This document shows, one piece after another, positions 6,272 through 44,556 of a stretch of DNA of 64,000 nt. The DNA is from Candidatus Melainabacteria bacterium (GTDB lineage Bacteria > Cyanobacteriota > Vampirovibrionia > Vampirovibrionales > JAJTHC01), in the NCBI GenBank assembly GCA_033763415.1, contig JANRKP010000007.1, positions 9,046-73,045 on the forward strand, given 5' to 3'. The notes under the pieces are model-generated. The model made no database searches and was not told the DNA's origin. It saw nothing but the letters and a program-made list of their open reading frames with translations. The translations under genes and the position numbers were made by a program. Within the stretch, counting starts at the first letter, position 1; each line of letters opens with the position of its first letter.

Positions 6272-6377
6272 TAAGTGGCACTCCAGTGGACTTGTTTGGC
6301 CAAGGAACGGTCCAACACCCACCAGTTGCCGTTTTAATTGTTGTTATATTGTACGAGTGGGAGGGTACCAGCCGACT

Positions 6378-6614
6378 ATGGATGCCTACAATGTGATGCA
6401 AGACCATGAAGACCACCTGATGAGCCTGCCCAATGTGACGGGTGTTGGCATTGGAGAAGACGAAAAGGGCCAGGAAACCATCGTCATTTACCTGAGCCAA
6501 CTGCCGGAAGCACAAACGGAATGGCTCAACACCACCTACCCCAATTCGTTAAACGGTATACCGGTGGTACTCCAAGATGCAGGGGGCCATTTTTTAGCCC
6601 TGGCGGAACGATAA
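6378..6614 (+). CDS. Hypothetical small protein (78 aa).
   Basis: ORF with GGGAGGG about 8 nt upstream of ATG (MDAYNVMQDHEDHL...). No recognisable domain. Confidence 0.4.
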   Translation: MDAYNVMQDHEDHLMSLPNVTGVGIGEDEKGQETIVIYLSQLPEAQTEWLNTTYPNSLNGIPVVLQDAGGHFLALAER

Positions 6615-7244
6615 ACACCGCCATTGCCACCCGCTGGCCCCAGATGATTCCAATAGGAAAAAACAATCCACCCATGCGGCCCGCTTTGCCCTGGGTGGAT
6701 TGTTTCTGGGTAGACTGTTTATAGAATTCGGTTATAAATATTTTTTTTAAATAAAAACGAATATTTATTCAGCTCAATTGAACAACAATTGGGTATAACT
6801 AAAAGCAGAACCGAGCATCCATCTTTCTTTAGATGGGGCCAATTTTTGGTTGCGTGGGGTCGGGGTCATTGCTCCGCATAAAGCCAAGCACGCGCCACAT
6901 CTTTAAAAAAACCCGCAAGAGCCACCACCGTGAGACTGTAGAAAATCCGTTAATCGTTCGATATTGAATGTTATACGAGAGAACGCCACTGAAAAAATGG
7001 CCAGCCGCTGCGCAATACGGCTGTAGTTGGCACGCCCCGGCAAGCAGGCCGTCCGTGTTATACACGGGCGCGAAAAATCAGCCAATATTATCCAGCCCAA
7101 CGGCCAACAAGCCACCTTCCCCGAGGGAGAAAGCGCCACACACCTTGATTACACCCTTTTTTGATAGCACCCTTTATCGCGTTTTAGCTTAGCCGCATTT
7201 AGCGCCCATCGTAGGTCAGGAGTGACGCATGCAGTTAGAGCACT

Positions 7245-7667
7245 TTATGGACGAGTTGCTGTCACTAGTTCAAGAAGCGCATGTTTGGTATGAGCATGGG
7301 CAGGCGGAAAACCTCCCGCCTCCAATTCCCGCCGAAGTTGATCGAAAAAGTCCTCTGGTAGTTGGGCAATGGCTCCATGGCGGACCAGTTCCACCAAGGC
7401 CAAAATAAGCTGGGATAAACTGTACTCGTCGGCGGCTCGCAACGCCTTTAGTTTATCCAACGTAAAGCCCGCCCGAGAAAAGGACGGCGTGTTGGCCAAA
7501 CGCTCCAGCGTCTCGTCACGAAACCGTCTGCGCCCGTGCATCAGGTTTGACAACCCGTCGGCAGATATTCCCATTTCTCTGGCCAATCGCTCCACAGATA
7601 AACCCTGATGCAGCATCAGCGTTTGAATGGCCAACCCCAAACTGTTTTCGGAACGCTTCATGACCAA
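7245..7667 (-). CDS. XRE-family helix-turn-helix transcriptional regulator.
   Basis: HTH_XRE-like segment LSVERLAREMGISADGLSNLMHGRR near the N-terminus. 140 aa. Confidence 0.6.
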   Translation of the reverse strand: MVMKRSENSLGLAIQTLMLHQGLSVERLAREMGISADGLSNLMHGRRRFRDETLERLANTPSFSRAGFTLDKLKALRAADEYSLSQLILALVELVRHGAIAQLPEDFFDQLRRELEAGGFPPAHAHTKHALLELVTATRP

Positions 7668-8095
7668 TCTCTTTCAAAAACAAAACTTTCAAAAAAGAAA
7701 GTTTTACTAACAGCATTGACAGGTTTTTGGTCCGGCGTGCTATAATTCATTGCCAAAGACTTCGTACCTGAAGCGTTTAACGCAACGTACAAACAGACGC
7801 CAGGGTTCGTCGTTTACTGATGGTATTGTATTACAAATCTGGCAATTGTTCTGAACTTTTCATATTGGCTCGATTCTTTATTTCCGTTTTAGTCCGTATT
7901 CATCACGCTGTTGTAGGTTGAGGAAGAAATACACGCGCCACCACTCTGGTAGCGTAGCGCAACGCACATTCTGTAGGCTGCCATAGAAGTATGTATGGAT
8001 GGATAGCGCAAGATTTGCTCGATGTGCACTGTTAGCTCGTTCAGGCGGTAAGCGTTTGCGATTGTACGCCACCAAAAAACAGAAAGGAATCTCTG

Positions 8096-8299
8096 GTGCT
8101 ACCATTCCGACTTCGGATTCACGAACTGTTGCAGAAACAACGCAAGGGTTGGTCCATGAAAACGCTGGCTGAAAAACTGGACGTGGATCATCAAACCGTC
8201 CTGTACTGGAACCAAGGACGCACCTACCCCAGACTGCCCACCCTGGTACAACTGGCCCGGCTATTGGGCTGTCCTCTGCAAGATTTATTGGAAGAATAG
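8096..8299 (+). CDS. XRE/Cro-C1-type helix-turn-helix transcriptional regulator (67 aa).
   Basis: Canonical HTH_3 pattern: LRIHELLQKQRKGWSMKTLAEKLDVDHQTVLYWNQGRTYPRLPTLVQLARLLGCPLQDLL. Divergent from the regulator at 7245..7667. Confidence 0.65.
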   Translation: MLPFRLRIHELLQKQRKGWSMKTLAEKLDVDHQTVLYWNQGRTYPRLPTLVQLARLLGCPLQDLLEE

Positions 8300-8667
8300 G
8301 CTGAATGTGACCCTGGACAACAATTTGTAACAGAAACATTAAGACAGTCTTAAGATTTTAATAATTTCCTAAAACATTGTCTGGTATTGGATTTTAGGCA
8401 TTTCTTCATTCGAACTTCATTTTTTAATTTTTATCCCTATACAAACAAATTAAAATCAAATGGATCCATCCTGTTTTTATGCCTATGTAGGGAATCCTTA
8501 AGAAAACCTTAAGTAACCCCGCAGAGAGAGAAAGCGAGTAAGTGGAGTGAGTTTAATTCATCAGCACCCAATCGCAACCAGTGCAAAGGCTGCACAATAT
8601 ACAGCCCATTAGCGTTGGTAAAGCTTCTCACGCATTACACGGAGTAGAGAGCACGGAGAAGAGCACA

Positions 8668-8871
8668 ATGTCTGGCTTTAAAACCAACGCAAATGCTGCC
8701 TTTGCTGCACATGCTGCCGTGTTCTCGGTAGCACCCAACCTTAGGCCCGCAGGCAGTGCACCGCTGTTTAACAACCCGGTATTTGGCGCCCAAAGAAGCC
8801 ACTACGGGCAAATGGCCACCGGTATGATGGCCGATAACAGCAATGGCCTACAATTAAACCTCAAAGTATAA
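8668..8871 (+). CDS. Hypothetical small protein (67 aa).
   Basis: GGAGAAGAG RBS ~7 nt upstream of ATG (MSGFKTNANAAFAAHAAVF...). No recognisable domain. Lies in an otherwise low-coding region. Confidence 0.35.
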   Translation: MSGFKTNANAAFAAHAAVFSVAPNLRPAGSAPLFNNPVFGAQRSHYGQMATGMMADNSNGLQLNLKV

Positions 8872-10052
8872 GTTTTCCCCTCCTTAGTTTTATTCGTCCA
8901 TTCCTCAGTAAACCCTCCCCCCCTTAAAAAAAGCAGACGTAAAGCCCAAAAAAGAAGCAAGAAACATAAAAAACAAAAGCGTTAAACCAACGGTTATCGA
9001 GTCGTTTGGTTCCCATTAGAGTGTTCCATTGATTTATTGATTCCCCTTCAGTTATGTCCGTATCACCCCCTTACCCCCTAACCTGAAACAACTTTGCCAG
9101 GGTTGAGTAAGGCTGAGCCCGTTGTGTTGGAAAGCGAGAATCTTGCTCCATCTCAACGACAACCGCCCGCTGACTCAACCCCGTTTTAACAAACCGTTTA
9201 CACAAACTTCCCTTCCCTCCCCTGTCCCATCATCCTTTCCCCCTGTTGTCAGCGCCTCAGGCAATACTGATGTGCTGAAAACCATTTCCCCAACTGTCTG
9301 GCCAATGGCCAGATACCCCCCCTGCGTGTTGCCCGGTTTTAACGGACAAGCGCTTTTTCTTTTTTGGGGTTGTTTTTAGGCAATTTTTTTACTGGCGCCA
9401 GCCAGCAGACAACACTACCTCCACATAGCCCTGCCCTATATCCGCACGGAGAACATCCATACAAAAAAGCTGCCCACCCCCATTCAAGAGGAATGAACAG
9501 CTTTTTTACACGGCGCAAAAAATACCCGGCTTTTCATAAAGCAACATGGACAGTAGGGCCGTATTTTTTAATTTAAAAACAGGCTCGCCACGGTGCCCAC
9601 ACACAGTAGCGCCCCAATCAGCGCACCCGTTACAAACGCATTGGTATTATTGCCAAACAGCAACTTGGTCATACTGTTAAACACTCCCCTCTTTCGTCTG
9701 TTGTTTTGTTCTATTGATGATGCACAAGAAAACCCAAACAAACGGCCCGTTTAAAAAAACATGGCCGCACAACGCTTTATTATAGTGGGTTTTATCCTGC
9801 CCGAATATTCCCCCAAACGGGTGAACCACTACCCAGGAGAGCAGTAAAACCAACTGAGCCAGAATGGGGAAAGCGGCAACAGCAGCCCACCCCTTGGCTT
9901 AGGGACAACGTTTTTTTACACCCAGACGCGGCAAACTTCCTAAATTTTTGGCAACGGCTTTTTTGCACTGGCGACAAAACCGTACGGGTTTCTGCCTGAT
10001 GAATTGGAGCCCTCTGGGTTAGAGCCTCTGGATAGAGCCGGGGGGTCGTTGG

Positions 10053-11203: not shown

Positions 11204-12190
11204 TTAGTCCTCGGTTTCCTCCGGGTTCGTTGTGGCCTGTGGCTGCGCGTTGGCAGAGGCTGGCTGAACTTCGGGTGGACGCTCCGCCTGGCTGGCACCC
11301 ACTTCCAAGGCTTTGCCGGTTTTCACCTCATTGCCACTGGCATCGGTTGCAGAGGTAATTTTAATTTCCGCCGTGGGTGTGGGCACGGTGGCAGTACCGG
11401 AAACGCCACTGGACTGAACAGATGCCTCCGTGGTGTCAATTTCTGGCGTGCTCTCCTGGTAGCTGGCAGCATCCCACTTGCCTTGCTGGAGCACCTGTGC
11501 GCCATCACCACGGTCCTGGTACACGGTGTAGGTACCGTTGTTACGGCGGTAAATTTCCGTGGTCCGTACGCCATCCACCTCGCGCGTCATAATAATGTTG
11601 TCGCCTATTGCAGAGGCATCGTGCTCACCAATCCGCACAGTTCTGGCCGTGCGAGAGTCGTGACCCTCGTTGTTATAGTTCAACACCACGTTGGCCCCGT
11701 TTACTTTGGTGGCCGTAATTTCATTCGCACCAGTGCCATCACCCGTGTTAACAGAGGCCTGGGTTTGGTCCACCTCGGTTACCTTGCTGTCGCGCGGCAC
11801 TTCACGAAGGGCATCGGAAAACACGGAACGTTCCACCCCTTGCGGTAGATTGACCGAGGCAATTTGGTTATCCTTCACCTGGCCTTCAAACGCCAAGCTG
11901 GTGTTGTTGCCACCGGCACCTTCGTTAAACAACGAGTAGCCAAAACGATGGACATCAAACTGGCCCGTCTTGGGGTCGTATACCGTAAACGTGTTACGAT
12001 CGCCCTGGTTGCGGTAAATATGGTACTCTCGCCCGCCTTGGGTTACGGCAAAGCCTTCGCCACGGAACGGACCGTTTTGCTCGGTTAGCCGCTTGGCGTT
12101 AGGGTCTTCCTGGGCGCGGTTGTACCAGTCCTGAAGATCTCTTCCGCGCCAGCGAATATCATTGGTGCCAGTGTACGTATTTCCAGGCAT
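11204..12190 (-). CDS. Hypothetical protein (328 aa). The N-terminal domain is of unknown function; the C-terminus is Thr/Ala/Pro-rich low complexity.
   Basis: Strong RBS GGGAGGAG immediately upstream of the ATG (MPGNTYTGTNDIRWRG...). No signal peptide. The plus-strand ORF 10949..11848 overlapping it is judged a shadow ORF. Confidence 0.6.
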   Translation of the reverse strand: MPGNTYTGTNDIRWRGRDLQDWYNRAQEDPNAKRLTEQNGPFRGEGFAVTQGGREYHIYRNQGDRNTFTVYDPKTGQFDVHRFGYSLFNEGAGGNNTSLAFEGQVKDNQIASVNLPQGVERSVFSDALREVPRDSKVTEVDQTQASVNTGDGTGANEITATKVNGANVVLNYNNEGHDSRTARTVRIGEHDASAIGDNIIMTREVDGVRTTEIYRRNNGTYTVYQDRGDGAQVLQQGKWDAASYQESTPEIDTTEASVQSSGVSGTATVPTPTAEIKITSATDASGNEVKTGKALEVGASQAERPPEVQPASANAQPQATTNPEETED

Positions 12191-12257
12191 GGGTAAAAAC
12201 TCCTCCCAATCGAGCGTGTTTACTTAGCCCGCATCGTCTTTCGCGGAGCCAAGCAGG

Positions 12258-12290
12258 CATAGGGTTTAGGGTCTAGGGTTTAGGGTCTAT
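12258..12290. repeat. Tandem heptamer array TAGGGTT-TAGGGTC-TAGGGTT-TAGGGTC (telomere-like, G-tract rich).
   Basis: Read directly in the divergent promoter region between 11204..12190 (minus) and 12669..14177 (plus). Confidence 0.6.
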
Positions 12291-12668
12291 CGGGTAAAAT
12301 GGGTGCTACTGCGCATCGCGCCAATTAAAATCAAAGCCAATGCTACTGTTGGTCTTCACGGCTTTGTTTTGGCCGATACTATCTGCATTCATTTCAAAAG
12401 GTTCAACACAGTCGCGTGCATTCCAAGGGTATAAAGTTTTGTTTGTTTCCCTTAGTGCTACGGTTAACAATGGTTTAAGAATTCACCCTTCCTGGGCGGT
12501 CGGGGGTCGGGGGGTCACAAGTAACAGTTCGTAACAAGAGAGGCAAGCGAGCCCTTTAAATTGTTTTTATATTTTTATATTGCTTACGATAATACCCCCT
12601 TCAATTAACTAACACACATTGGTTGCTATGGAAGTTCCAAGAGAGTTCACTTGGGAGGAAGGATTGTT

Positions 12669-14177
12669 ATGGGAACTGGAATGAACAGCCGTGCGATTCA
12701 GGGCGATTTATACGGCCTGGCACGACAAAATACCCTCGAAGGCCTGATGAATAATTTATCCATTGGCGGGTCCGCACGGCGCGGCAGCGAATGGGAACAA
12801 ATTGGCAATGGCTACAACATTGCCAATGTTCAAAACCGATTTAACGGCAACGGCTGGCAAATTAGTAACGCCAGCGATGGATACAACCAGTTTGGTAGCG
12901 ATGTATTTGGACGCTACGGCAACTTGTATCAACAAAGCAGTTTTGCAAACGTGCTTGGCACCAACCAGTTTGGTGGAGACGCCATGCAGATTGGCCCGTG
13001 GAACTGGGCTGGTTTTGACCAAGCCGGTGCCAATGGCGACCTTTACCAAGAAGGCCTGCTGAATGGCGCCTACACGGTCAACAACTTTAATGGCGAGGCC
13101 ACCCAGTATGGCCTGCTGAACGATTTTAGCGTCTATGGCGATTTTGATGGCAGCTATTACGGAGAATCTACCGGGCTGAACAATTTTTACACAGGCGGCA
13201 ATTTCCAAAATAACGGGCAGGCCAGCCTGATTGGACCCAGCAACGTGTTTGGCATTGGCGGCAATTTGCTCCAAAACCTGCACCAAACCGGCGGTAGCCG
13301 TAACGAAGCCGCGCTAAACCTGGCGGGCATTTACGGCAACGTGGATGGAAACCTGATTCAAGACGGCATTAACCCGGACTACTACAACCTGCAAAAATTA
13401 AACGCCAGCGGCATTTGGGGCAACCTCAACGGTAACGCCACGCTGGGCGGAGAAAATATGGTTAACCTGTTTGGGGTTGGCGGGGATATCTCTGGAAACG
13501 CCCGACTGGGCGGCACGGGGAACCTCAACCTGGGCTATGTTGGCGGCAATCTGGGGGGCAACCTTCGGTTCAGCGGCAACGACAACCTCAACCTGCTTTC
13601 CGTAGGTGGCAACGTTCCACAGGCAACGCTCAACGGCAGCAACAACCTCCATTGGCTGTCGGCGGGTAGCATCGATCAACTCAACGCCCGTGGCAATGGA
13701 AACATCGGCAGTGTTTGGTCTACCGATGATATTTTCAACACCACCATTAGCGGCAACGGCAACACGTACGATATTAGTACCGGCGGCGCGCTGCGAGATG
13801 TGCAATTAAACGCACAAAACAGCAATGTATCCCTAACGGAATACAACGTATGGCCCGGCACGCAGGACAGCAACGCCTACCTGTACGGCAACAACAACAC
13901 CGTTGCCTACAACAGCTATGGCAATACCAACAACAACTACTACTTAGGTGACAACCAGTACACCCAAATTAACGATGCCGGCGGCGACAACGCCTACTAT
14001 GTGCAAGACGCCACGGGCACCATTTACATTAACGATGCGGGTGGCGCCGGGGTGTTGCACGCCGATGGACTGCGCACCTTTACCCGGAGCGATGGAACGG
14101 TCATTGCCTGGTCTCCCATTGGCAACCAAGGCCCAATGACCTTTGTACGAGCCACTGGCGTGACACTGAACCAGTAA
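12669..14177 (+). CDS. Asn/Gly/Gln-rich repeat protein, beta-solenoid or curlin-repeat-like (503 aa).
   Basis: GGGAGGAAGG RBS, then ATG (MGTGMNSRAIQ...). Dozens of degenerate repeats of the type N-x-x-N-V-x-Q-x-G-x-x-N / GGNL-x-GN. About 20% Asn and 17% Gly. No signal peptide. Confidence 0.6.
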   Translation: MGTGMNSRAIQGDLYGLARQNTLEGLMNNLSIGGSARRGSEWEQIGNGYNIANVQNRFNGNGWQISNASDGYNQFGSDVFGRYGNLYQQSSFANVLGTNQFGGDAMQIGPWNWAGFDQAGANGDLYQEGLLNGAYTVNNFNGEATQYGLLNDFSVYGDFDGSYYGESTGLNNFYTGGNFQNNGQASLIGPSNVFGIGGNLLQNLHQTGGSRNEAALNLAGIYGNVDGNLIQDGINPDYYNLQKLNASGIWGNLNGNATLGGENMVNLFGVGGDISGNARLGGTGNLNLGYVGGNLGGNLRFSGNDNLNLLSVGGNVPQATLNGSNNLHWLSAGSIDQLNARGNGNIGSVWSTDDIFNTTISGNGNTYDISTGGALRDVQLNAQNSNVSLTEYNVWPGTQDSNAYLYGNNNTVAYNSYGNTNNNYYLGDNQYTQINDAGGDNAYYVQDATGTIYINDAGGAGVLHADGLRTFTRSDGTVIAWSPIGNQGPMTFVRATGVTLNQ

Positions 14178-14325
14178 TGGCAAAGAGCCACGCAGAGTAA
14201 CACTGCATCTTCCATTAACCGGAATGAACATAACCGGAATGAGCATAAACAGGGCCGAACGTAAGCCGGTCCAATCCTCTCGGCAAACTTTCTAATACCC
14301 GAACAATTCTTAAAAAAGCGAAAAT

Positions 14326-14368
14326 AGGCGATAGACTGCAACCGCGCAATCTATCGCCTTCTTTTATG
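14326..14368. terminator. Putative bidirectional rho-independent terminator between two convergent genes.
   Basis: Perfect 10-bp inverted repeat AGGCGATAGA...TCTATCGCCT with a 14-nt loop, followed by TCTTTTAT on the plus strand. Confidence 0.45.
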
Positions 14369-14418
14369 GGCCGTAAAAACGGAAACAAACTGGCCAAACA
14401 ACCTCTAACCCAAAAGGG

Positions 14419-14904
14419 TTAGCCCAGGCTAAACGGATTGGAACCTCTTGCCAGAGCCTCCGTACTCCAGGGATCCGGGCTGCTGCCACGGGGCTGAATG
14501 GAATTGTTGGCAGGCCCAAACACCCGCTGCCACGGGGTGGTTGCGTTGTTGGCGTCTGTTGCAGCAGGTTCGGCCAGTGCAAACGGATTGGATCGGTTAT
14601 CGGTGCCAGTGGTCGGGGTGGTTGCACGCCAACTTTGCGAGGCGGTTGGCGGACTGAGTGGGCCGGTCACCGAGGATTGGTTGGCGTTTGGTCTCAGCAC
14701 CTCGGTGCTGGTCAGCCAACTTTCCAGCCCCGTGTTGCCAGGCAACGGATCGAGCCGGGCCGGAAATGGATTGACCCCCGCAAAGGGATCGACGGGCGAG
14801 CCTTGCGGCAACCGCTCAGGCTTGGTTTGTGCTTGCCAATGATTTCCGTAAACGTGCGTGGCACTGGATGGCGCCAACGCAGGTCGGCTGAGCCAATCAC
14901 TCAT
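14419..14904 (-). CDS. Hypothetical low-complexity protein with repeated NPF/DPF/DPW motifs (161 aa).
   Basis: ORF with GGGAGAAAGAG upstream. Composition is Pro/Ser/Thr/Asn-rich and looks intrinsically disordered. Convergent with 12669..14177. Confidence 0.45.
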   Translation of the reverse strand: MSDWLSRPALAPSSATHVYGNHWQAQTKPERLPQGSPVDPFAGVNPFPARLDPLPGNTGLESWLTSTEVLRPNANQSSVTGPLSPPTASQSWRATTPTTGTDNRSNPFALAEPAATDANNATTPWQRVFGPANNSIQPRGSSPDPWSTEALARGSNPFSLG

Positions 14905-15301: not shown

Positions 15302-17506
15302 ATGCTTGAATCCTCCGCATCCTCGAACACCCACTGTTACCTGCTGGAAGTTGGCACCGAAGAACTGCCAGCCAGCTTCCTATCCACAGCGCCCGAAGAG
15401 CTTCAGGAAAAAGTACAAAAATTTCTGGCAGAAGCGCATTTGCTCTCCAACAAAGTATCCCTCCAGCCGGAAGTGACCATCTACAGCACGCCGCGACGGT
15501 TGGCCATTGCCATTCACCATCTGCCCGAGCGGCAACCCGACAGCCTGTTAATGCTGAAAGGCCCACCCGTTTCCGTAGGGCTGGATGCCAACGGCACGCC
15601 CACGGCAGCCGCCCACGGGTTTGCCAAGAAAAACAATATTTCCGCGGAGCAGCTTCGTCCTTTGACGATTGAAGGCACCGACTACCTGGTTTACGAACAA
15701 CAGCAACCCGGCCGCGCCACACCCGAATTACTGGCGGAAGCGCTTCCCGAGTTAGTTTTGAGCCTGACCGGATCGCACTTTATGCGCTGGGGTAACACGC
15801 AAGCCCGTTTTTCCAGGCCCATCCGCTGGATTGTCTCTCTCTGGAACGAGCAGCACATTCCCGTTTCCATCGAGCATATTCAATCCGGGACCGTTAGCTA
15901 TGGTCATCGGGTACTGGCCGGTCCGTCGGCGCTTTCCATTCCATCGGCAAGCAGTTACGCCCAGGTGCTGGAGCAGCACGGTTTCGTACTGGTAGACCCT
16001 GCACGCCGAAAGGCGGCCATTTTGGAGGCCCTTCAGCAGGCAGCCGCCCGTCTGAATGGCGAGTCCCGGCCCGATGCCGACTTGTTGGAAACCGTTACCC
16101 ACCTGGTGGAATGGCCTTCGGTGGTGGTAGGCCATTTTGATGAACGCTACCTGGAACTACCGCCTGCGGTGCTCTCTACCGTAATGGCGGCACACCAAAA
16201 GTACTTTTCGATTTATAAAACAAACGAAAGCAGCCTGTTGCCAAACTTTCTAGTGGTGTCTAACGGTAAGACGGCAGTGGCGGCGGAAACCATTCGGGCC
16301 GGAAATGAGCGCGTGCTCAGGGCCCGCTTTGAAGATGCCCGCTTCTTTTTTGAAGAGGATCGCAAACAGACCCTGGAAGCCCGGGTGGACGCGCTCAAAG
16401 GCATTACCTTCCAAAAAGGGCTGGGAAGCCTGTACGACAAAACCCAGCGGCTTATTCCGCTGGCAGAAGCCATTGCCAACGACCTCTGTCGGTCAGATTC
16501 CGCTTTGAGTGCAGCGATTATTGACCACGCCAAACGGGCTGCCTTGTTGAGTAAAACCGATCTGGTGACCCGCATGGTCTATGAGCTGACGGAACTCCAG
16601 GGAGAAGTGGGGCAACGATACGCCGAACTGGACGGAGAGCCCGAGGAAGTTGCCCAAGCCATTGCGGACCATTACTTCCCCCGCTACAGTGGCGCGCCCT
16701 CTCCCACCCAACCGGTAAGCCGCGCACTAAGCCTGGCGGACAAGGCGGATACCCTGGTTGCCGTTTTCAGCCAGCAGGACGCCAAACTACCCACCGGCTC
16801 CAAAGATCCGCTGGGGTTACGTCGCCTGGGTGTAGGCGCACTGGTTGAGCTAATGGACACACCGCTTAGTTGGCATCGTATTTTAGAGCAAGCCTATCAA
16901 GGATTAGGCACCCTGGCACAATGCGACTGGCCCACAACCCAGGCCCGGTGCGACAGCTTTTTGCGTCAGCGTATGGAAAACGCGCTCCACTGGGTGGGCG
17001 GCTTAGAGACGACCCCCCACGAGATAGAAGCCGTTATGGATGCAGGCAACCCGTTTGAAAATCTGAAGCAGTTTTACGAACGGCTTCGTAAGCTATCGCA
17101 ACTGACTGCCACGGAAAGCTTTCACAAAATTTATCCGGCGGCCAATCGGGTGGATCGGATTTTGGCAGGCCGAACGCAGCCACTGGATGTGTTAGACAAC
17201 GTGGATGTTTCTCTGCTTCAACACGGCAGCGAACACGATTTGCTCAACGTGCTGTTGGCCATGCGCAGCCAGCCACCGGTCCATTGGTCCGACCCGGCTT
17301 CAGTCGATCAGTTGTTGCGCAATATGGAAGCACTCTCCCCTTGGGTGAATGCGCTGTTTGAGCACGTGATGGTCAACGACCCCGATGTGGCCGTAAAAGC
17401 CAACCGGGTGGAGTTACTTTCGGTGGTCAATGGTTATTACTATCAACTGGCACGATTTTCCAAGCTGATAGCCCCTGTAGAGTTGGCTGAAATGGCGACC
17501 CGCTAA
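15302..17506 (+). CDS. glyS: Glycine--tRNA ligase beta subunit.
   Basis: Full-length match to the GlyS architecture: N-terminal YLLEVGTEELPASF, a central catalytic region and a C-terminal anticodon-binding region. 734 aa. No glyQ in the window. Confidence 0.9.
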   Translation: MLESSASSNTHCYLLEVGTEELPASFLSTAPEELQEKVQKFLAEAHLLSNKVSLQPEVTIYSTPRRLAIAIHHLPERQPDSLLMLKGPPVSVGLDANGTPTAAAHGFAKKNNISAEQLRPLTIEGTDYLVYEQQQPGRATPELLAEALPELVLSLTGSHFMRWGNTQARFSRPIRWIVSLWNEQHIPVSIEHIQSGTVSYGHRVLAGPSALSIPSASSYAQVLEQHGFVLVDPARRKAAILEALQQAAARLNGESRPDADLLETVTHLVEWPSVVVGHFDERYLELPPAVLSTVMAAHQKYFSIYKTNESSLLPNFLVVSNGKTAVAAETIRAGNERVLRARFEDARFFFEEDRKQTLEARVDALKGITFQKGLGSLYDKTQRLIPLAEAIANDLCRSDSALSAAIIDHAKRAALLSKTDLVTRMVYELTELQGEVGQRYAELDGEPEEVAQAIADHYFPRYSGAPSPTQPVSRALSLADKADTLVAVFSQQDAKLPTGSKDPLGLRRLGVGALVELMDTPLSWHRILEQAYQGLGTLAQCDWPTTQARCDSFLRQRMENALHWVGGLETTPHEIEAVMDAGNPFENLKQFYERLRKLSQLTATESFHKIYPAANRVDRILAGRTQPLDVLDNVDVSLLQHGSEHDLLNVLLAMRSQPPVHWSDPASVDQLLRNMEALSPWVNALFEHVMVNDPDVAVKANRVELLSVVNGYYYQLARFSKLIAPVELAEMATR

Positions 17507-17508
17507 GT

Positions 17509-19626
17509 ATGCGACCGTTTCAACTGCCGGTGGATGTGCCCCGGAAATCCGAAATTGTTCAAAACCGCATTGGGTTTATCATCGTTCTGTGCATTCTGGC
17601 CGTTATGGTCTTTCTGCTGTTTTTGCTCTCGGTTAACGTGGGGTTTTTGCTGGCCAAAGGCGCCGCCGCACTGCCGGATATTCGGCTGCTGGAAAACTGG
17701 CGTCCCAACGAAAGTACGCGCATCTACGATCGATACGGCTCTTTGGTGGCCAACATTCACGGAGACGAAGACCGCGTTGTGGTTCGCCTGAGCCAGATTT
17801 CGCCAAACGTTCAGCGGGCCGTGATGGCCATTGAAGACAACCGGTTTTATCAGCACAACGGCGTCGATTTTCGCGGAACGTTTCGGGCGCTGATTCAAAA
17901 CGCACGCGGCGGGGACGTTCAGGGCGGCAGCACCCTGACCCAGCAGTTGATTAAAAACCTCTTTCTCACCCCGGAGCGCTCCATTGGCCGTAAACTGGCC
18001 GAAGCGCTACTGGCCATGCGGGTGGAAAGCTACTACAGCAAAAATACCATTCTGGAAATGTACCTGAACCAGGTGTATTGGGGCAACCAGGCCTATGGCA
18101 TTGAAAAAGCCGCCCGTCGTTACTTTAAAAAGCCCGCCGCCGATTTAACCATTGCCGAATCGGCCATGCTGGCAGGCCTTTTAAAGGCACCCGAAGGCTT
18201 GTCTCCATTCGCCTATCCGCAGCGTTCGCGCGAGCGCCAGCAGGAAGTGCTCAACAGTATGGTGAAATACGGCTACATTACCGAAGAACAACGCCGGGCC
18301 GCCGCCAAAGAGGAACTCAGCTTTAACGATCGAACGCCCAAGCCTTCTAAGTACCCGTATTTCGTTACTTACGTCATTCAGGACTTAATTCAAACCTTCA
18401 ACCGGGCCGGACAAAATGGCGAAGATCTCGTGCGGCGTGGCGGCTTGGAAGTGTTCACCACTGTTGATCCGCAGGTGCAGGAGGCCGCAGAAAAGGCGTT
18501 ACTGAGTTCCATTAACAGCTTGCCCAAGTACTCAATGGTGACGCAAGGGGCGCTGGTGGCCATTGATGTGAAGACCGGCAACATTTTGGCCATGGTCGGG
18601 GGTAAGGACTTTCAGAAAAGTCAGTTCAATAACGTCACCCAGGCGCGCCGGGCCGCAGGCTCCACATTTAAGCCAGTGGTTTACCTCACGGGCTTTCGGA
18701 TGGGGATTATCACACCACAGTCGATTATCTCGGACCGACCCGTTTACTTTAACACCGGCTATAGCGTGTGGACGCCCAAAAACTGGGACGGCCGATTTAT
18801 GGGGCCCATGACCGTTCGGCAGGCCTTGGCGCTGTCTCGCAACACCACCACTGTTCAGGTGGGTATGAAGGTTGGCATTAAAGAGGTGATTGAAACCGCC
18901 AAACTCGCAGGCATTACCTCGCCAATTGATCCCAATTTTTCCAGTTTGCTGGGTTCTTCCGGTATTTCTCCCTTAGAGATGGCCACGGTTTACAGTACGT
19001 TTGCCCGCGGCGGTATGAGCCTGACGCCCACTGGCGTGCAGCGGGTGGAAAATACCCGTGGCGAGCCGGTAGAACTGCGCCGAGGCGCGGCCAAACAGGT
19101 GTTTGACTCTGAAGACGTCTGGAACCTGGTTTCCATTTTGGTGGATGTGGTTGAAAAAGGCACGGGTAAAAGCGCACAACTGCCCAAACGCCAGGTGGCG
19201 GGCAAAACCGGCACCACCGATAAAGTAAGAGACATTTGGTTTGCGGGCTTTACACCGGATATGGTTTGCGTGGTGTGGATGGGCAACGAAAAGTATGTCC
19301 CTCTCCGTGGGGTGTTTAGTTCCAACGCGGCCAAGGTATGGCACGATTTTGCAGACGCCTACTACCAGATTACCCGTATTCAGGCTTCGACGTTCCCGAC
19401 ACCGCAGGTAACAAAGGTCAGCAAGCAGATTATTGACGTTTCGCCCACCCGCCCGTCCCAACAGCGCGCGGCTGGCCAAAAGCGCCCGGACAGTGACTCT
19501 GGAAATTCCTCCCAGGGCGAGGCGACAAACAATACCAACGCTCCGGCGCCTCCGTCTTTACCCGCGCCCCCCATTGCGCCAGAGAGTATGGATCTGCCCC
19601 CGGTCCCCATTCCGCCCAGCAATTAG
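17509..19626 (+). CDS. Class A penicillin-binding protein (PBP1A-type bifunctional transglycosylase/transpeptidase).
   Basis: N-terminal TM helix. GT51 motifs (MAIEDNRFYQHNGVDFRG, GGSTLTQQL). Transpeptidase motifs (STFKP, SRN, KTGTT). Pro-rich C-terminal tail. Starts 2 nt after the glyS stop. Confidence 0.9.
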   Translation: MRPFQLPVDVPRKSEIVQNRIGFIIVLCILAVMVFLLFLLSVNVGFLLAKGAAALPDIRLLENWRPNESTRIYDRYGSLVANIHGDEDRVVVRLSQISPNVQRAVMAIEDNRFYQHNGVDFRGTFRALIQNARGGDVQGGSTLTQQLIKNLFLTPERSIGRKLAEALLAMRVESYYSKNTILEMYLNQVYWGNQAYGIEKAARRYFKKPAADLTIAESAMLAGLLKAPEGLSPFAYPQRSRERQQEVLNSMVKYGYITEEQRRAAAKEELSFNDRTPKPSKYPYFVTYVIQDLIQTFNRAGQNGEDLVRRGGLEVFTTVDPQVQEAAEKALLSSINSLPKYSMVTQGALVAIDVKTGNILAMVGGKDFQKSQFNNVTQARRAAGSTFKPVVYLTGFRMGIITPQSIISDRPVYFNTGYSVWTPKNWDGRFMGPMTVRQALALSRNTTTVQVGMKVGIKEVIETAKLAGITSPIDPNFSSLLGSSGISPLEMATVYSTFARGGMSLTPTGVQRVENTRGEPVELRRGAAKQVFDSEDVWNLVSILVDVVEKGTGKSAQLPKRQVAGKTGTTDKVRDIWFAGFTPDMVCVVWMGNEKYVPLRGVFSSNAAKVWHDFADAYYQITRIQASTFPTPQVTKVSKQIIDVSPTRPSQQRAAGQKRPDSDSGNSSQGEATNNTNAPAPPSLPAPPIAPESMDLPPVPIPPSN

Positions 19627-24920: not shown

Positions 24921-26603
24921 TTACACAGCCCAGCGGGCCAATAGGCGGCCCACCAGCTCGCGCAGTTCCGAGGGAAGATTCAGTTGCTCTTTGACCCGCA
25001 GCAACTCCTCTTCCACACAACGGCGCCCATACTGCTGCAAAAAGCCGGGCGTTTCCACCAGTTTCTGGTTGTCCACCTCCTGACGCAACTGCACGGCCGC
25101 CGAAGCGGCTAGCTGGCTGAAACTGTGAATTTCCTGACAGTGCAGCAAATAGGCGGCTTCCGTCAAACGAGGAATCAGCAAGGCCTTCCATCCACTATTT
25201 ACCAAAGCCCGGGTTACCTGATGGGACAATGTGTCCAACAGGTCAAAAAATACCGCGTCGGATTCCGGCGGATGCGCCACGGCAGCCTCTAGCATAGCGC
25301 TTACCTGGCCCAGCAGTTCCGTCACTTCCGGGTGATCGCCGGGCTCTAAAAACCAGGTTTCAAAATCGGGGTGCTGGTATAAATTGGCGCCCAACACCAT
25401 ACCCGCCTCGGTGGCCCACGGCTGCACGGTTTCCATTAAATCCATCGGTTCTAGCGAAACATCTTCCAGCAAGACCTTCCAACAGCTATATTCATACGGA
25501 ATGCGGCTGCCGTTGTTGCGACTCATTTTTTCAGCCCACTGAATTTTGTTACGGCAATAGCTGACCGGCACCCGAATTTTCGTGTTGCCCTCGTGGAACT
25601 TCTGCAAAATGCGCTCAAAGTCTTCCTGGGCCAACTGATAAAAACCAAAGCAGTCAATAATGCCGTGCAGGTCGTTTAGCGCCAGGCTCATCATCGTAAT
25701 GTCGCCATTACTCCACTGACGACTGACCACCATGCCCTGGTTTCCCACCCCATCGGGAAGCGTGGCATAACAGTCAAACAAAACCGTTTGCTGCACCAGT
25801 GGGTGGCGAACACTCTGCTCCTGGAACGCCTCCACGGCTTCTTCCCTTAAGGCGCCAGACAGGCGAATTTCACTCAGGGCCCGTTGAATGGCACGGATCA
25901 AATCCGGAGAGGCGGCCACGTAACTGCCCTGCAAAGCCGCCAACCAGTCCGCCAAAAACATACCGGCCGGGGTCAGGCCACTTTTGCCCAAACTGCGTAT
26001 CAAGCGCTGTCGCACCTCGGTTGGAGGCTCCGCCTGAATGAGCGGAATGTAGATATTCATCAGGTAATCGGGCCGGTAATCGTTCTGCAAGGACTCGATG
26101 AGATGAATTTGCTCTGGTTCGGGCAAGGAGCAAATAAAGTCGATAAAATCAATCAGCGCTTCCGGGTTTTGCGAAGACACCTCCAACATGCGTTCGGTTT
26201 CGCGGTTAATCAGCCCCAAGGGATCGTCGAGATACTCCAGGTACAGATCCGGGTCGGTTTCATCGCCCAAGTGGCGCAAAATCAGGTTGGCCGCATCCTT
26301 TACCTCATCGGTGGTGTTGGGGTTGCGGATCAGTTCCCAAAGCGGGGTTTGAAGATGCGCAATGGTGCCCAGTTCCATTAAAATTTCGGCCACGGCCTGA
26401 ATATCCGACGGTTTTTTAGCGCGCTGGAGTTCTTTAACTAAAATGAGCAGCACGGCTTCCCGATCGGCGATTTCTCGCAAACGACGAAACTGTTTGGCCC
26501 GGTCGTGACGAGACGGTGTTTCCACCGAAGTCAGCACGCCCATCACTGCGAGCACTTCGCTACGAATATAAAGTTTGGAAGAAATCTGTGGAACGTCTGT
26601 CAT
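24921..26603 (-). CDS. Conserved-looking hypothetical protein of unknown function (560 aa, soluble, predominantly alpha-helical composition).
   Basis: Long uninterrupted ORF co-directional with the graspetide precursor upstream and ruvX downstream. No motif I can assign. Confidence 0.7.
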   Translation of the reverse strand: MTDVPQISSKLYIRSEVLAVMGVLTSVETPSRHDRAKQFRRLREIADREAVLLILVKELQRAKKPSDIQAVAEILMELGTIAHLQTPLWELIRNPNTTDEVKDAANLILRHLGDETDPDLYLEYLDDPLGLINRETERMLEVSSQNPEALIDFIDFICSLPEPEQIHLIESLQNDYRPDYLMNIYIPLIQAEPPTEVRQRLIRSLGKSGLTPAGMFLADWLAALQGSYVAASPDLIRAIQRALSEIRLSGALREEAVEAFQEQSVRHPLVQQTVLFDCYATLPDGVGNQGMVVSRQWSNGDITMMSLALNDLHGIIDCFGFYQLAQEDFERILQKFHEGNTKIRVPVSYCRNKIQWAEKMSRNNGSRIPYEYSCWKVLLEDVSLEPMDLMETVQPWATEAGMVLGANLYQHPDFETWFLEPGDHPEVTELLGQVSAMLEAAVAHPPESDAVFFDLLDTLSHQVTRALVNSGWKALLIPRLTEAAYLLHCQEIHSFSQLAASAAVQLRQEVDNQKLVETPGFLQQYGRRCVEEELLRVKEQLNLPSELRELVGRLLARWAV

Positions 26604-26937: not shown

Positions 26938-28059
26938 TTACTGAATATCGCGGTTCAGCCTAGGACGTTGCCAAGCCTGAAGCGAGCTGCCTTCGGGTGG
27001 AACATCCATCAGAATAGCGGGCGGTTGCGCGTCTTCTTCCAACGCTTCTACCGGCAGCCACTCTTGGGAAGAACCGGGCTGAATGCTATGGCCAAAGTCC
27101 TCTTCCATTAACTCAGGGCCCCATTCCTGCACATCGGCAGGCGGCATATGGGGTGCGTCCTCTTCTATCAGGCCCGGAAAACAGTCAATAAAGTCCTGGC
27201 GGCCCATCGGAATCAGGGTTTCGTCTACCTCTAAACCGGGTGGAATATAGCCAGGGGAAGGCTCGGGTTCGATCGGCAGTTCCTCCATCCAGCGACCGTT
27301 GCCGGGCACGATAATGATGTCATCGCCAGGCGCTTCGCCCACACCCCCGGTTTCAGCATCGGATGGGAATGCCAACGTTTGTTCCACAATACTGGGGTTT
27401 GACGGCTCCCACGGCATCGGCCCTTCAATTCCACCAGGCTCCATAGAGCCCCCATCTTCGCTGTCAGATGGGTACTTCATCGTTTCTATGCCACTGTCGG
27501 GCAAGGGAAAAATACCACCATCGCCAGGCGCTTCACTTGCGCCCCCATCTTCACTATCGGACGGATACTTCAGGGTTTCTATGCCACTGTCGGGCAAGGG
27601 AAAAATACCGCCATCGCCAGGCAGCTCACCCACACCACCCTCTTCGCTGTCAGATGGGTACTTCATCGTTTCTACGCCACTGTCGGGCAAGGGAAAAATA
27701 CCGCCATCGCCAGGCAGCTCGCCCACACCACCCTCTTCGCTATCCGAAGGTGCCTTCATAGTTTGGTAGCCACCGCCCAAATCGCCGGGTTGGGTAGCCC
27801 AGGGCGCTTCGCTAGAACCACCCTCTTCACTGTCAGAGGGGTATTTCATCGTCTGAATCACCGTATCTGGAGATAAGGGCGAATCCCAGGACGTGCCACC
27901 CACGCCACCTTCTTCACTATCCGATGGCGCTTTTTCGGTCTCACCACGAATGCCATCCATCCATTGACGCCCCTCTGGGTTGGCTTGGGCCAAGCGCGGC
28001 AACGGTTGCGGGGGGGTTTGGCCGCTAGTCGCAAAATTGAGGAAATAACGATCTGTCAT
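26938..28059 (-). CDS. Multi-core graspetide (microviridin-like) precursor peptide: leader, 7 tandem core-like units, and an acidic C-terminal tail.
   Basis: The translation contains TEKAPSDSEEGG, TMKYPSDSEEGG, TMKAPSDSEEGG, TMKYPSDSEEGG, TLKYPSDSEDGG, TMKYPSDSEDGG and TLAFPSDAETGG, spaced ~31 aa apart. T-x-K-Y-P-S-D-x-E-E is the microviridin core signature. The N-terminal DRYFLNF resembles the PFFARFL leader motif. Adjacent to three ATP-grasp genes. Confidence 0.75.
   Translation of the reverse strand: MTDRYFLNFATSGQTPPQPLPRLAQANPEGRQWMDGIRGETEKAPSDSEEGGVGGTSWDSPLSPDTVIQTMKYPSDSEEGGSSEAPWATQPGDLGGGYQTMKAPSDSEEGGVGELPGDGGIFPLPDSGVETMKYPSDSEEGGVGELPGDGGIFPLPDSGIETLKYPSDSEDGGASEAPGDGGIFPLPDSGIETMKYPSDSEDGGSMEPGGIEGPMPWEPSNPSIVEQTLAFPSDAETGGVGEAPGDDIIIVPGNGRWMEELPIEPEPSPGYIPPGLEVDETLIPMGRQDFIDCFPGLIEEDAPHMPPADVQEWGPELMEEDFGHSIQPGSSQEWLPVEALEEDAQPPAILMDVPPEGSSLQAWQRPRLNRDIQ
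27448..27726. repeat. Three near-identical tandem ~93-bp coding repeats inside the precursor gene (the core plus linker units).
   Basis: Protein units VGELPGDGGIFPLPDSG(V/I)ET(M/L)KYPSDSE(E/D)GG repeat three times. The DNA is near-identical. The plus-strand shadow ORFs also show the repeats (PLSGKGKIPPSPG...). Confidence 0.8.
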
Positions 28060-28320
28060 AGGAAAAACGAAACCTCTCTGCTCTCTAATCTTTTATGTTG
28101 GCTTGGCAAAAAACCGAACACATCGACGTTTCAGTCTGTCACCCAAGCAACGGGGTAACATCTGTTACTGAAAACTGCTTCATGCACGCCAGCACAGCTC
28201 TTTAACTCTCTATTTACAGGTTTTAGTTCTCTCTCTCTTGATAACCCTTGGATGCAGCCCGAAGAGATGCAACCCAAAGCATATTTGACACCTGACGGGG
28301 ATTTTTTTAAGCGGAAACGA

Positions 28321-28340
28321 AACCTGCAACAATGCAGGTT
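28321..28340. promoter_or_regulatory. Perfect 8-bp inverted repeat (AACCTGCA-ACAA-TGCAGGTT) in the divergent intergenic region between the graspetide precursor and the ATP-grasp operon.
   Basis: Read directly. Flanked by GAAACGAAAC-type direct repeats at ~28067, ~28315 and ~28352. Confidence 0.3.
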
Positions 28341-28702
28341 GAATGCATAAAGTAGAAACGAACCGCTTTTGTGCTAGACACACCCACCTTTAGCGCTTGG
28401 GCAAAGTATTTAGCCTTGTGGAGCGGCGCGCTCAGTGGTTGCATTCTGCCCTACATCGTTGCATGGTGCTTAGGGCCTGTCGCTGGGCTTGCTGACAGCT
28501 TGCCCTACCCCCCCGATAAAGGACACCACTTTCATTTTGGTAGAGGGTTTGTCTTGCAGAAATTTTTTGGAAAGATGGCCTCGTTTCCGCTGGACAGGGG
28601 AACCCAAACACCCGAGCGCCTGTTAAAATCGAGCCAATGTAGGCACTGTACCTGCGGTATCCTACTCCGCCGGTATTACAAACGGGTTTTACAATAGCCA
28701 CT

Positions 28703-41260: not shown

Positions 41261-41489
41261 CGTTCGTCTACGGAGAAGCATTGGACAGTGTTTCCTCACG
41301 GGGGGTGCAGAACTCCTGTAAATAGCCGAAATACACCTCATAGCTGCCCGAACCCGCAATCGCAGCTCTTACAATAAATCGCTAAGGAAACAGGCTTCCG
41401 TTTCGGTTCACACCCCTGCGGGGGGGGAGGTCTCGTTCGGTCTCGGTCTGGTTCAGCACCGTTAAGCGCTGGGAGGGTTCGCATCTACT

Positions 41490-44231: not shown

Positions 44232-44556
44232 GTTTCAGCCTGCTGTAGTCAATCCGGCTGATGTGTTGGCCTTGGCGCCAAACGATGAAACCCCGGATGA
44301 ACCGACTGCAGAGCTTGTTTGCGCCATTACGCAAGACAACGTGTTACCACCCGAAGCCGAAGCATCGGCGGATTGTGCGCTTTTGGAGACAGAAGCAGGG
44401 GCAATCGGCCAAGCGCCGTTGGAGTCTTTTCGAGAAACCCTGAGCGCCAGTATTAACGTGGAGCTGGGCCCCGATCCCACCCAACCCCTTACGCCACACG
44501 AACCCGTCACCCTGAGCGTGGAAGCGGGCTTTGTTGAAAGCTTTACCTTTTTACGC

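Follow-up and report, generated by a model that had tools for sequence, protein, structure and literature searches.

The open reading frame at 12669..14177, here called g2, lies in a Melainabacteria (Vampirovibrionia) genome and encodes an orphan protein that most likely forms, as judged from its predicted models, a beta-helical rod similar to a domain of a bacterial adhesin. The explanation favoured here, tentatively and at somewhat less than an even chance, is that g2 would be a lineage-specific, fast-evolving beta-solenoid, probably a surface or extracellular rod with signal-peptide-independent export. The genes on its two sides, g1 and g3, are regarded as independent orphans neighbouring g2 by chance and not as demonstrated partners of it. 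The features of the locus, in the coordinates of the window (the whole 64-kb stretch of DNA analysed), are as follows:

11204..12190, minus strand: g1 (SFZ03_02645), 328 aa; open reading frame and PGAP hypothetical protein
12191..12668: divergent control region of g1 and g2, 478 bp, from the sequence
12201-12209 (minus) and 12651-12659 (plus): Shine-Dalgarno contexts TTGGGAGGA in the g1/g2 control region
12260-12289: heptamer array (TAGGGTT/TAGGGTC)x4 in the g1/g2 control region, from the tandem-repeat search
12566-12593, plus strand: promoter-like site from the promoter scan, the number of such sites being no more than chance
12669..14177, plus strand: g2 (SFZ03_02650), 502 aa and stop; open reading frame and PGAP hypothetical protein
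12669..13028, plus strand: N-terminal region of g2 (residues 1-120), rich in G, N, Q and aromatic residues, period ~39 (2 x 19.5)
13029..13988, plus strand: core of g2 (residues 121-440), by prediction a right-handed parallel beta-solenoid with ~15-16 coils of 19-21 residues each
13410..13661, plus strand: four regular 21-residue repeats, g2 residues 248-331, from autocorrelation and the unit HMM
13989..14174, plus strand: C-terminal tail of g2 (residues 441-502), in which two degenerate NDAGGxxxx turns precede ~40 non-repeat residues
14326..14359: hairpin with a 15-bp stem and T-runs on both strands, from the terminator scan and the sequence
14419..14904, minus strand: g3 (SFZ03_02655), 161 aa; open reading frame and PGAP hypothetical protein

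All three open reading frames named in the preliminary description were found in place and are also called by PGAP, with g1 and g2 divergent and g2 and g3 convergent as it had reported; the g2 frame itself stood, while its length of 503 aa had to be corrected to 502 aa and a stop. The g1 and g2 frames are intact (987 and 1509 nt), and each has, 9-10 nt 5' of the ATG, the Shine-Dalgarno sequence TTGGGAGGA (GGGAGGA in g2), which occurs three times in the window versus 0.5 expected. These two sites are the strongest matches among the ~33 genes checked in the window, so that the near-consensus sites attributed to all three genes hold for g1 and g2, whereas g3 has the weaker GGGAGAAAGAG. High expression of the genes is an inference from such sites. 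With a housekeeping reference of 0.16-0.34 per codon (12 genes), the codon-usage LLR was 0.274 per codon for g1, the housekeeping level, and 0.221 for g2, every other frame being negative in both cases; g3, at 0.039, gave the highest value of its six frames, yet one far under real genes. The codon usage is, accordingly, native in g1 and g2 and marginal in g3. The genes form three separate transcription units, as follows from the divergent promoter region between g1 and g2 and the bidirectional terminator between g2 and g3, the hairpin at 14326..14359 being, by its sequence, likely to serve both convergent genes; the earlier idea of a three-gene module was not supported. The control region 12191..12668 had no Rfam match at E<=1.

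The g2 product consists of 17.5% G, 15.7% N and 5.8% Q, has no Cys and a pI of 4.16, and contains a single Lys in 502 residues (0.2%, versus the background of 3.1%). Its BLOSUM autocorrelation at lag 21 was -0.135, ~7 sd above the best-lag shuffle mean of -0.53 +/- 0.056 (shuffle maximum -0.31), and climbed to 1.1-1.7 in the windows 221-350. The protein had been described as built almost entirely of repeats, of which the periodicity was borne out, but recognisable units are limited to ~4-8 central 21-mers at residues ~195-372, outside of which the composition is alike and the period is 19-20 (39) residues, lag 38-39 being the best period in the windows 61-190. The unit HMM gave 27-35 bits solely for the four units at residues 248-331, with the consensus x-V-G-G-N-L-x-G-N-x-x-L-G-G-x-N-x-L-N-L-x. 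No tandem repeat at the DNA level was found within the g2 frame, and the conserved repeat residues use differing synonymous codons in the register/codon table, so that the repeats did not arise by recent duplication of DNA. Only g2 itself was recovered when 1.84 billion representatives were searched exhaustively with HMMER, the word-indexed search gave self-matches only, the metagenome and viral (IMG/VR) scans gave no relatives, and there was no match of any kind in Pfam and NCBIfam. By such sequence searching, g1, g2 and g3 are all singletons with no known relatives.

The structure prediction proposed earlier as a check on g2 returned a beta-solenoid: the AF2 model shows this topology at residues 121-440 with moderate confidence, and the fold rests on two single-sequence predictions of that confidence, in which no residue attains a pLDDT of 90. 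The flanks were not folded at residues 1-120 (pLDDT 24-32), with 26-46 at residues 441-502. Structurally, the model is matched best by large right-handed beta-helices and not by curli, the top match being the RTX-type solenoid 3p4g; the Foldseek E-values are weak (0.05-0.1). This structure is region IV of the ice-binding RTX adhesin of Marinomonas primoryensis (MpAFP/MpIBP RIV), a Ca2+-dependent ligand-binding beta-helix that is the nearest structural analogue of the g2 model, with sequence homology to g2 not detectable. MpIBP RIV is composed of 19-21-residue repeats with the consensus xGTGNDxuxuGGxuxGxux and one Ca2+ per coil (PMC3492233). The period of g2 matches and its Gly turns are analogous, but the xGTGND Ca2+-binding turn is missing and no G.GN[DN] motif is found; moreover, g2 is a stand-alone protein of 502 aa with no T1SS genes in its window, whereas MpIBP RIV is a domain of a 1.5-MDa adhesin.

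On the favoured explanation, ~15-20 coils of 19-21 residues would be stacked as a rod ~7-10 nm long, a right-handed parallel beta-helix, the core of which would be filled by the small hydrophobics L/V/I at repeat positions 2, 6, 12, 18 and 20, and the turns of which would be made by Gly. Stacked Asn at positions 5, 9 and 19 may stabilise these turns, where RTX-type solenoids have Asp-bound Ca2+. Provided that the model is right, a 19-21-residue solenoid of the RTX-adhesin type does not require Ca2+-binding Asp turns, which would be of relevance to the design of Ca2+-independent beta-helical scaffolds and to the folding of such repeats, Ca2+-driven folding being believed to supply the power for type I secretion.

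The placement of g2 outside the cytoplasm, as a putative adhesin or matrix element, is suggested by its acidic, Cys-free and almost Lys-free composition together with the absence of a Sec signal, and it might be exported without a signal peptide, for instance by a type I-like pathway that uses a C-terminal signal. None of the three proteins has an N-terminal hydrophobic segment, the maximal Kyte-Doolittle value of a 15-residue window being <=0.37 in the first 45 aa. The stop-to-stop frames add at most ~20 upstream codons and contain no earlier start giving a hydrophobic leader, the only earlier g2 start being the TTG at 12651 with six additional non-hydrophobic residues; the lack of a Sec signal claimed for all three genes is, thus, confirmed, with no leader hidden upstream.

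The slot directly 5' of glyS is variable among Vampirovibrionales, and in two of the six relatives (L002 and L005) signal-peptide-less RTX-like repeat proteins are encoded there:

L002, 8734..9693, 7886..8473 and 6842..7654: glyS-adjacent RTX-like repeat proteins
L005, 8736..9521: glyS-adjacent RTX-like repeat protein

It is, accordingly, conceivable but unlikely that g2 is an extremely diverged RTX/beta-roll protein descended from the same ancestral glyS-adjacent RTX-like gene as theirs, having lost its Ca2+-binding Asp while remaining a T1SS substrate. The three L002 paralogues and the L005 gene occupy the same slot as g2, directly 5' of the conserved glyS-PBP1A pair; two of the L002 proteins exceed the curated Pfam cut-offs (HemolysinCabind, 33 vs 23 bits; DUF3060, 33.5 vs 23.1), and the L005 protein (L005a) keeps GGxGND and yet is G/N-rich and Lys-free like g2. 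These proteins and g2 alike are acidic, have a ~20-residue double-turn repeat and a short non-repeat C-terminal tail and lack a signal peptide; the lack of an N-terminal signal peptide, the acidic pI and the lack of Cys are also shared by g2 with RTX/T1SS substrates at large, whose parallel beta-roll/beta-solenoid is likewise predicted in the g2 model, and its structural top match is a solenoid of this type. The top pairwise alignment joins g2 residues 406-469 to L005a at E=0.06. However, the similarity is not significant once composition and periodicity are controlled: with single phmmer queries the score of the real g2 was attained by 13-506 of 1000 shuffles, and the profile score of reversed g2 was -28.9 versus -30.3 for the real one. 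RTX proteins are characterised by tandem Ca2+-binding nonapeptides GGxGxDxUx. The GGxGxD motif, counted 11, 2, 5 and 6 times in the L002/L005 proteins, is absent from g2 even in its relaxed form, the orientation of the genes differs, g3 intervenes, the window lacks the synteny anchors ispG and radical-SAM, and only the two of six relatives have such genes in that slot. No HemolysinCabind (PF00353) match was obtained with whole g2 or its sub-segments. An assignment of g2 to the RTX proteins as such was ruled out by the zero count of GGxGxD motifs. The C-terminus of g2, with its final Gly-rich turns and short tail, resembles those of the L002/L005 proteins, without statistical support.

Somewhat less probable still is a cytoplasmic self-assembling scaffold, bactofilin-like or another intracellular beta-helical polymer, that is never exported. 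It would agree with the absence from g2 of a signal peptide or TM segment, with the absence of secretion genes close by, and with neighbours of housekeeping and cell-envelope function (SPFH, glyS, PBP1A); the absence of a Ca2+-binding motif would permit folding in the low-Ca2+ cytoplasm. T1SS substrates have an uncleaved C-terminal secretion signal, of no fixed consensus, that is recognised by an ABC/MFP/TolC exporter whose genes usually lie close by. Neither the window nor the surroundings of the L002/L005 analogues contain T1SS ABC/MFP/TolC machinery, HlyD-type genes included, or curli or T5SS machinery, and, since a Ca2+-independent solenoid could fold in the cytoplasm, the T1SS analogy for g2 is weakened. 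The bactofilin, pentapeptide and hexapeptide family profiles did not match g2, the period of which is 19-21, not 5 or 6.

A more elaborate proposal would combine a Ca2+-independent "Asn-ladder" solenoid family, a prey-attachment rod and an endocytic-ligand mimic, and appears improbable when all three are taken together. It would have the RTX/MpIBP-RIV architecture kept with every Ca2+-binding Asp turn replaced by stacked Asn, and a predatory or epibiotic Vampirovibrionia lineage using the g2 surface rod on prey or substrate. The g3 protein is Pro/Ser/Ala/Thr-rich and probably disordered, and contains five [ND]P[FW] motifs (DPF39, NPF45, NPF106, DPW144 and NPF156), a count reached in none of 100,000 shuffles, with varying Pro codons (CCG/CCA/CCC). 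In eukaryotes, NPF, DPF and DPW motifs are endocytic-adaptor ligands that bind EH domains and the AP-2 appendage. Under the same proposal, g3 would be disordered and secreted, its five motifs mimicking such ligands, and g2 and g3 would together engage the prey in a relative of Vampirovibrio, which kills algae.

Among other right-handed beta-helices, the pectate-lyase-like autotransporter/TPS passengers and phage tailspikes have longer and less regular coils than g2, which also lacks catalytic or receptor-binding insertions, a signal peptide, a beta-barrel translocator and a TPS domain. The PHROG and PADLOC profiles gave no match to g2. A phage tail fibre/tailspike or a defence component was rejected on these negative profiles, the housekeeping neighbours and the lack of IMG/VR relatives.

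The likeness to curlin that had been noted for g2 proved compositional only. That g2 is a CsgA-type subunit polymerising into extracellular amyloid fibres, for which g1 and g3 would supply accessory or nucleator functions, is very improbable, although CsgA/CsgB are, like g2, Gly/Asn/Gln-rich and Lys- and Cys-poor, with imperfect ~20-residue repeats and, in general terms, the beta-solenoid architecture predicted for g2. The composition of mature CsgA (G 21/N 12/Q 8/K 1.5/C 0) is close to that of g2 (17.5/15.7/5.8/0.2/0), the repeats are of like length (~19-23 residues), and the first 120 residues of g2, unfolded in the AF2 model and N/Q/G/aromatic-rich, are prion-like by composition and contain the few strings of the Q-x-G-x-G-x-N-x-A-x-x-Q kind (Q-x-G-x-G-x-N-x-A-x-V-Q) from which the likeness arose. 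However, g2 is ~3x longer with ~15-20 coils versus 5, and has no match to the curlin repeat S-x5-Q-x-G-x-G-N-x-A-x3-Q (Curlin_rpt, PF07012) at E<=1 as a whole or at E<=10 in four sub-segments; of 1000 shuffles, 363 score at least as high as g2 in phmmer with E. coli CsgA, and 852 with CsgB. The N-terminal Sec signal, which in curli subunits is followed by a CsgG-targeting segment, is lacking, the model matches large beta-helices and not curli, the three genes are transcribed separately, and no CsgB/E/F/G-like genes occur in the 64-kb window (Pfam on ~35 ORFs; tblastn with the E. coli Csg proteins).

That all three frames are spurious or non-functional, whether annotation artefacts or the remains of decaying genes in a region that is variable and poor in genes, is hardly credible: none has a homologue, g3 combines its low codon score with several overlapping ORFs in other frames, and the adjoining 6.3-10 kb are gene-poor and lower in GC, but g1 and g2 are long and unbroken, with codon statistics like those of housekeeping genes solely in the annotated frame and with the best Shine-Dalgarno sites of the window, g2 is periodic at the protein level with varied synonymous codons, and g3 is enriched in motifs (p<1e-5) with varied Pro codons.

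No major open question is changed by g2, whose function we infer; the locus illustrates the fast turnover of surface-type repeat proteins in the little-studied non-photosynthetic sister lineage of cyanobacteria, with the glyS-side syntenic slot occupied in some genomes by canonical RTX-like proteins and in another by the total orphan g2. As to the flanking genes, the g1 protein is acidic (pI 4.8) and Cys-free, with a weak internal duplication (score 48 vs 32 +/- 5.8 in shuffles). It had no match in Pfam, NCBIfam, PHROG and PADLOC, only self-matches in a search of 5.8 billion proteins and none in the metagenome scan. The previous description holds for its Thr/Pro-rich tail, a C-terminal stretch of ~75 residues that is Thr/Ala/Pro/Glu-rich, and for the NPF/DPF motifs in g3. 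A protein identical to g3 is present in three independent SRA-run assemblies.

The three neighbouring genes termed here g1, g2 and g3 originate from a 78.8-kb contig of the 'Candidatus Melainabacteria bacterium' MAG, and all three ORFs were found where the preliminary description had placed them:

Genes and signals at 11204-14904
11204..12190, minus strand: g1, 328 aa, SFZ03_02645, PGAP hypothetical protein
12669..14177, plus strand: g2, the Asn/Gly-rich repeat protein, 502 aa, SFZ03_02650, PGAP hypothetical protein
14326-14359: hairpin with a 15-bp stem and T-runs on both strands, at the g2/g3 convergence point
14419..14904, minus strand: g3, 161 aa, SFZ03_02655, PGAP hypothetical protein

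Since g1 and g2 are divergent, with a spacer of 478 bp, and g2 and g3 converge on the hairpin, plausibly a bidirectional terminator common to both, the genes are three separate transcription units and not an operon. The same string, TTGGGAGGA, stands 9-10 nt 5' of the ATG in both g1 and g2, and these Shine-Dalgarno sequences are the strongest anti-SD matches among the approximately 33 window genes compared; thus, the near-consensus SD ascribed earlier to all three genes holds for g1 and g2, while that of g3, GGGAGAAAGAG, is weaker. The idea of a three-gene module has accordingly been given up, as g1 and g3 are without demonstrable link to g2 except adjacency and, for g1, the common SD context. 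The g1/g2 spacer also contains a fourfold heptamer array (TAGGGTT/TAGGGTC, 12260..12289), the sole one of that kind in the window, which includes the plant-type telomere unit TTTAGGG, and a 15-nt tandem repeat, TAACCGGAATGAACA, occurs in 2.2 copies at 14216..14248, just 3' of the g2 stop and ahead of the hairpin. An RNA-element account of the long intergenic regions is unsupported, with zero Rfam matches at E<=1.

The coding evidence was assessed by a codon-usage log-likelihood trained on 12 confident window genes, whose own range is 0.16-0.34 per codon. Both g1 (0.274) and g2 (0.221) fall within this range, with all five alternative frames negative; g3 reaches only 0.039, the top of its six frames, yet weak. 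However, g3 carries five [ND]P[FW] motifs (DPF, NPF, NPF, DPW, NPF), a count matched by 0 of 100,000 composition-preserving shuffles; the [ND]PF motifs hold four of its five Phe residues, the DPW being additional, and the motif Pro codons vary (CCG/CCA/CCC), which argues for selection of the motifs at the protein level. An identical g3 protein was found in assemblies of three independent SRA runs. The Logan contigs bearing g3 and a part of g2 are 99.9-100% identical to the window, hence contain no informative polymorphism, and they attest to the recurrence of the strain with no signal of selection. The g3 product is probably a disordered NPF/DPF/DPW-motif protein. Motifs of this type are ligands of the eukaryotic EH-domain and AP-2 appendage, a curious feature in a host that is a relative of an alga-killing predator. 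The g1 product is acidic, with a tail rich in Thr, Pro and Ala.

The g2 protein is rich in Gly (17.5%) and Asn (15.7%), contains a single Lys (0.2% vs a background of 3.1%) and no Cys, and has a pI of 4.16. Across the whole protein, BLOSUM autocorrelation is strongest at lag 21, exceeding the value that shuffles attain at their best lag by about 7 sd. Locally, a period of 21 holds over residues ~200-350, and the remaining regions show one of 19-20 (or 39). Four regular 21-mers with the consensus x-V-G-G-N-L-x-G-N-x-x-L-G-G-x-N-x-L-N-L-x occupy residues 248-331, and the flanking units are visible by eye and strongly degenerate. Because no DNA-level tandem repeat was detected within the ORF, and the conserved repeat residues are encoded by differing synonymous codons, the repeats are ancient and have been preserved as protein sequence.

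Full-length g2 was modelled by single-sequence AlphaFold2 with a mean pLDDT of 50, residues 1-120 and 441-502 being left unmodelled and residues 121-440 (pLDDT 55-78) forming an unbroken run of short beta-strands, with two main strands per ~20-21 residues. The core alone (185-445), when re-predicted, was again all-beta, with a mean pLDDT of 68.4 and pTM of 0.69. The beta-solenoid proposed earlier is, thus, supported by a moderate-confidence model, in which the protein appears neither disordered nor globular without a solenoid. The closest structural analogue of the model, at weak Foldseek E-values (0.05-0.1), is region IV, the Ca2+-dependent ligand-binding beta-helix of the Marinomonas primoryensis RTX adhesin (PDB 3p4g), composed of thirteen 19-21-residue repeats with the consensus xGTGNDxuxuGGxuxGxux in a Ca2+-bound beta-solenoid (PMC3492233); g2 matches it in the period and in the three Gly turns per coil.

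By sequence, g2 matched only itself among 5.8 billion proteins (word-indexed search) and 1.84 billion cluster representatives (exhaustive phmmer), and zero matches were obtained in the PDB sequences, in Pfam and NCBIfam (whole protein and segments, the latter at E<=10), in PHROGs and PADLOC, or in JGI metagenome contigs and IMG/VR. The g1 protein is equally isolated, with self-hits or nothing, g3 clusters alone as a singleton and lacks relatives among viruses, and there are no paralogues inside the window. The orphan status by itself is unremarkable for the lineage, since Pfam-less ORFs are frequent in the window, such as 7878..8339 and the four large ones (315-560 aa, no Pfam match at E<=1e-5) at 24921..26603 (-), 28703..29650 (+), 37702..38814 (-) and 40328..41359 (-); orphan or poorly characterised proteins are frequent in this genome.

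Related genomes were retrieved via GlyS, and the closest belong to the Vampirovibrionales, at 43-48% identity for GlyS and 61-69% for PBP1A. In 6/6 loci (L001-L005, L023) glyS and PBP1A are adjacent, while the content of the slot on the upstream side of glyS differs among them; two of these loci, L002 and L005, have the slot downstream of a common radical-SAM and ispG pair, and there it holds 20-residue repeat proteins that lack a signal peptide and follow the pattern GGxG(N/D)D...G(K/x)xN...:

The glyS locus and the repeat proteins of relatives
15302..19626, window: glyS (glycyl-tRNA synthetase beta subunit) and class A PBP; stop at 17506, ATG at 17509, 2-nt gap
6842..9693, minus strand, L002, and 8736..9521, minus strand, L005: one to three tandem RTX-like repeat proteins between ispG and glyS

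Two of the L002 proteins pass the curated Pfam cut-offs, for HemolysinCabind (279 aa; 33 bits vs 23) and DUF3060 (324 aa; 33.5 vs 23.1). The L002 and L005 repeat proteins have a small common C-terminal domain (...W....Y.N...V..[IV]EE.RF.DG), and the L005 protein and one of the L002 proteins detect each other with E of 1e-12 to 1e-19. They are fast-evolving; the L005 protein is a near-orphan with one weak match among 5.8 billion proteins and no relatives in the PDB. No exporter genes lie beside them.

It might be supposed that g2 is an extreme, Asp-free descendant of such a glyS-adjacent gene, as it occupies the same slot upstream of glyS, and the L005 protein (G 22-23%, N 16%) is similarly Gly/Asn-rich and Lys-free. 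However, BLASTP between g2 and these proteins gave E=0.06, and in the phmmer bridging of g2 to them (a test with 2000 shuffles) the scores against the four proteins were reached by 13-506 of 1000 shuffles and were not significant. The family profile of the RTX-like proteins did place real g2 above 97.5-99.3% of the shuffles (p~0.01-0.05); the reversed g2 sequence, however, reached an equal score (-28.9 vs -30.3 for real g2), so the profile signal reflects periodicity and composition, not homology. Given also that the radical-SAM and ispG anchors are absent from the window, homology of g2 to these proteins is unsupported, and the descent is considered unlikely.

On the best-supported reading, g2 would rather be a beta-solenoid rod specific to its lineage, with some 15-20 coils and a length of ~7-10 nm at 4.8 Å per coil, the turns being putatively stabilised by Gly and stacked Asn in place of Asp-Ca2+. 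The amino-acid make-up of g2, together with the type of protein that its model resembles, suggests an adhesive or structural element on the surface or outside the cell; a cytoplasmic scaffold is a less likely alternative. None of g1, g2 and g3 has an N-terminal hydrophobic segment, and there is scant room for an upstream start, in agreement with the lack of a Sec signal peptide noted in the preliminary description; because of this lack, the export of g2 may follow a Sec-independent route.

The g2 protein resembles RTX proteins in being acidic, Cys-free, signal-peptide-less and, by prediction, solenoid-folded; as an RTX protein it is rejected on the defining feature, with zero GGxGxD motifs and no match to PF00353. 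The resemblance to CsgA-type curlin proved compositional (mature CsgA: G 21%, N 12%, Q 8%, K 1.5%, C 0), and the curli reading is contradicted by the lack of a Curlin_rpt match in the whole protein or its segments, of a Sec signal and of curli machinery in the 64 kb (Pfam on ~35 ORFs; tblastn with CsgB/C/E/F/G), and by E. coli K-12 CsgA and CsgB matching g2 no better than 363/1000 and 852/1000 shuffled g2, respectively.

Adjoining the orphan genes is a gene-poor stretch of ~3.7 kb (6300..10050) of lower GC (0.39-0.53), in which small ORFs only, among them an HTH_31/HTH_3 regulator (7245..7667, -), and no Rfam family were detected. A probable graspetide (microviridin-like) RiPP cluster lies at 26938..31511, where a 373-aa ORF (26938..28059, -) matches Inhibitor_I10 (microviridin/marinostatin precursor; 62.5 bits vs a cutoff of 21), being unusually long for a precursor and possibly multi-core, together with two MvdD/RimK-type ATP-grasp ligases (29647..30591 and 30588..31511). 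The window also encodes a pentapeptide-repeat protein (41857..42774), a PilB/T2SSE ATPase (44206..45606) and an AddA/AddB-type helicase-nuclease pair (1343 aa and 1288 aa; 54205..62023, -) that carries UvrD helicase and PD-(D/E)XK domains.
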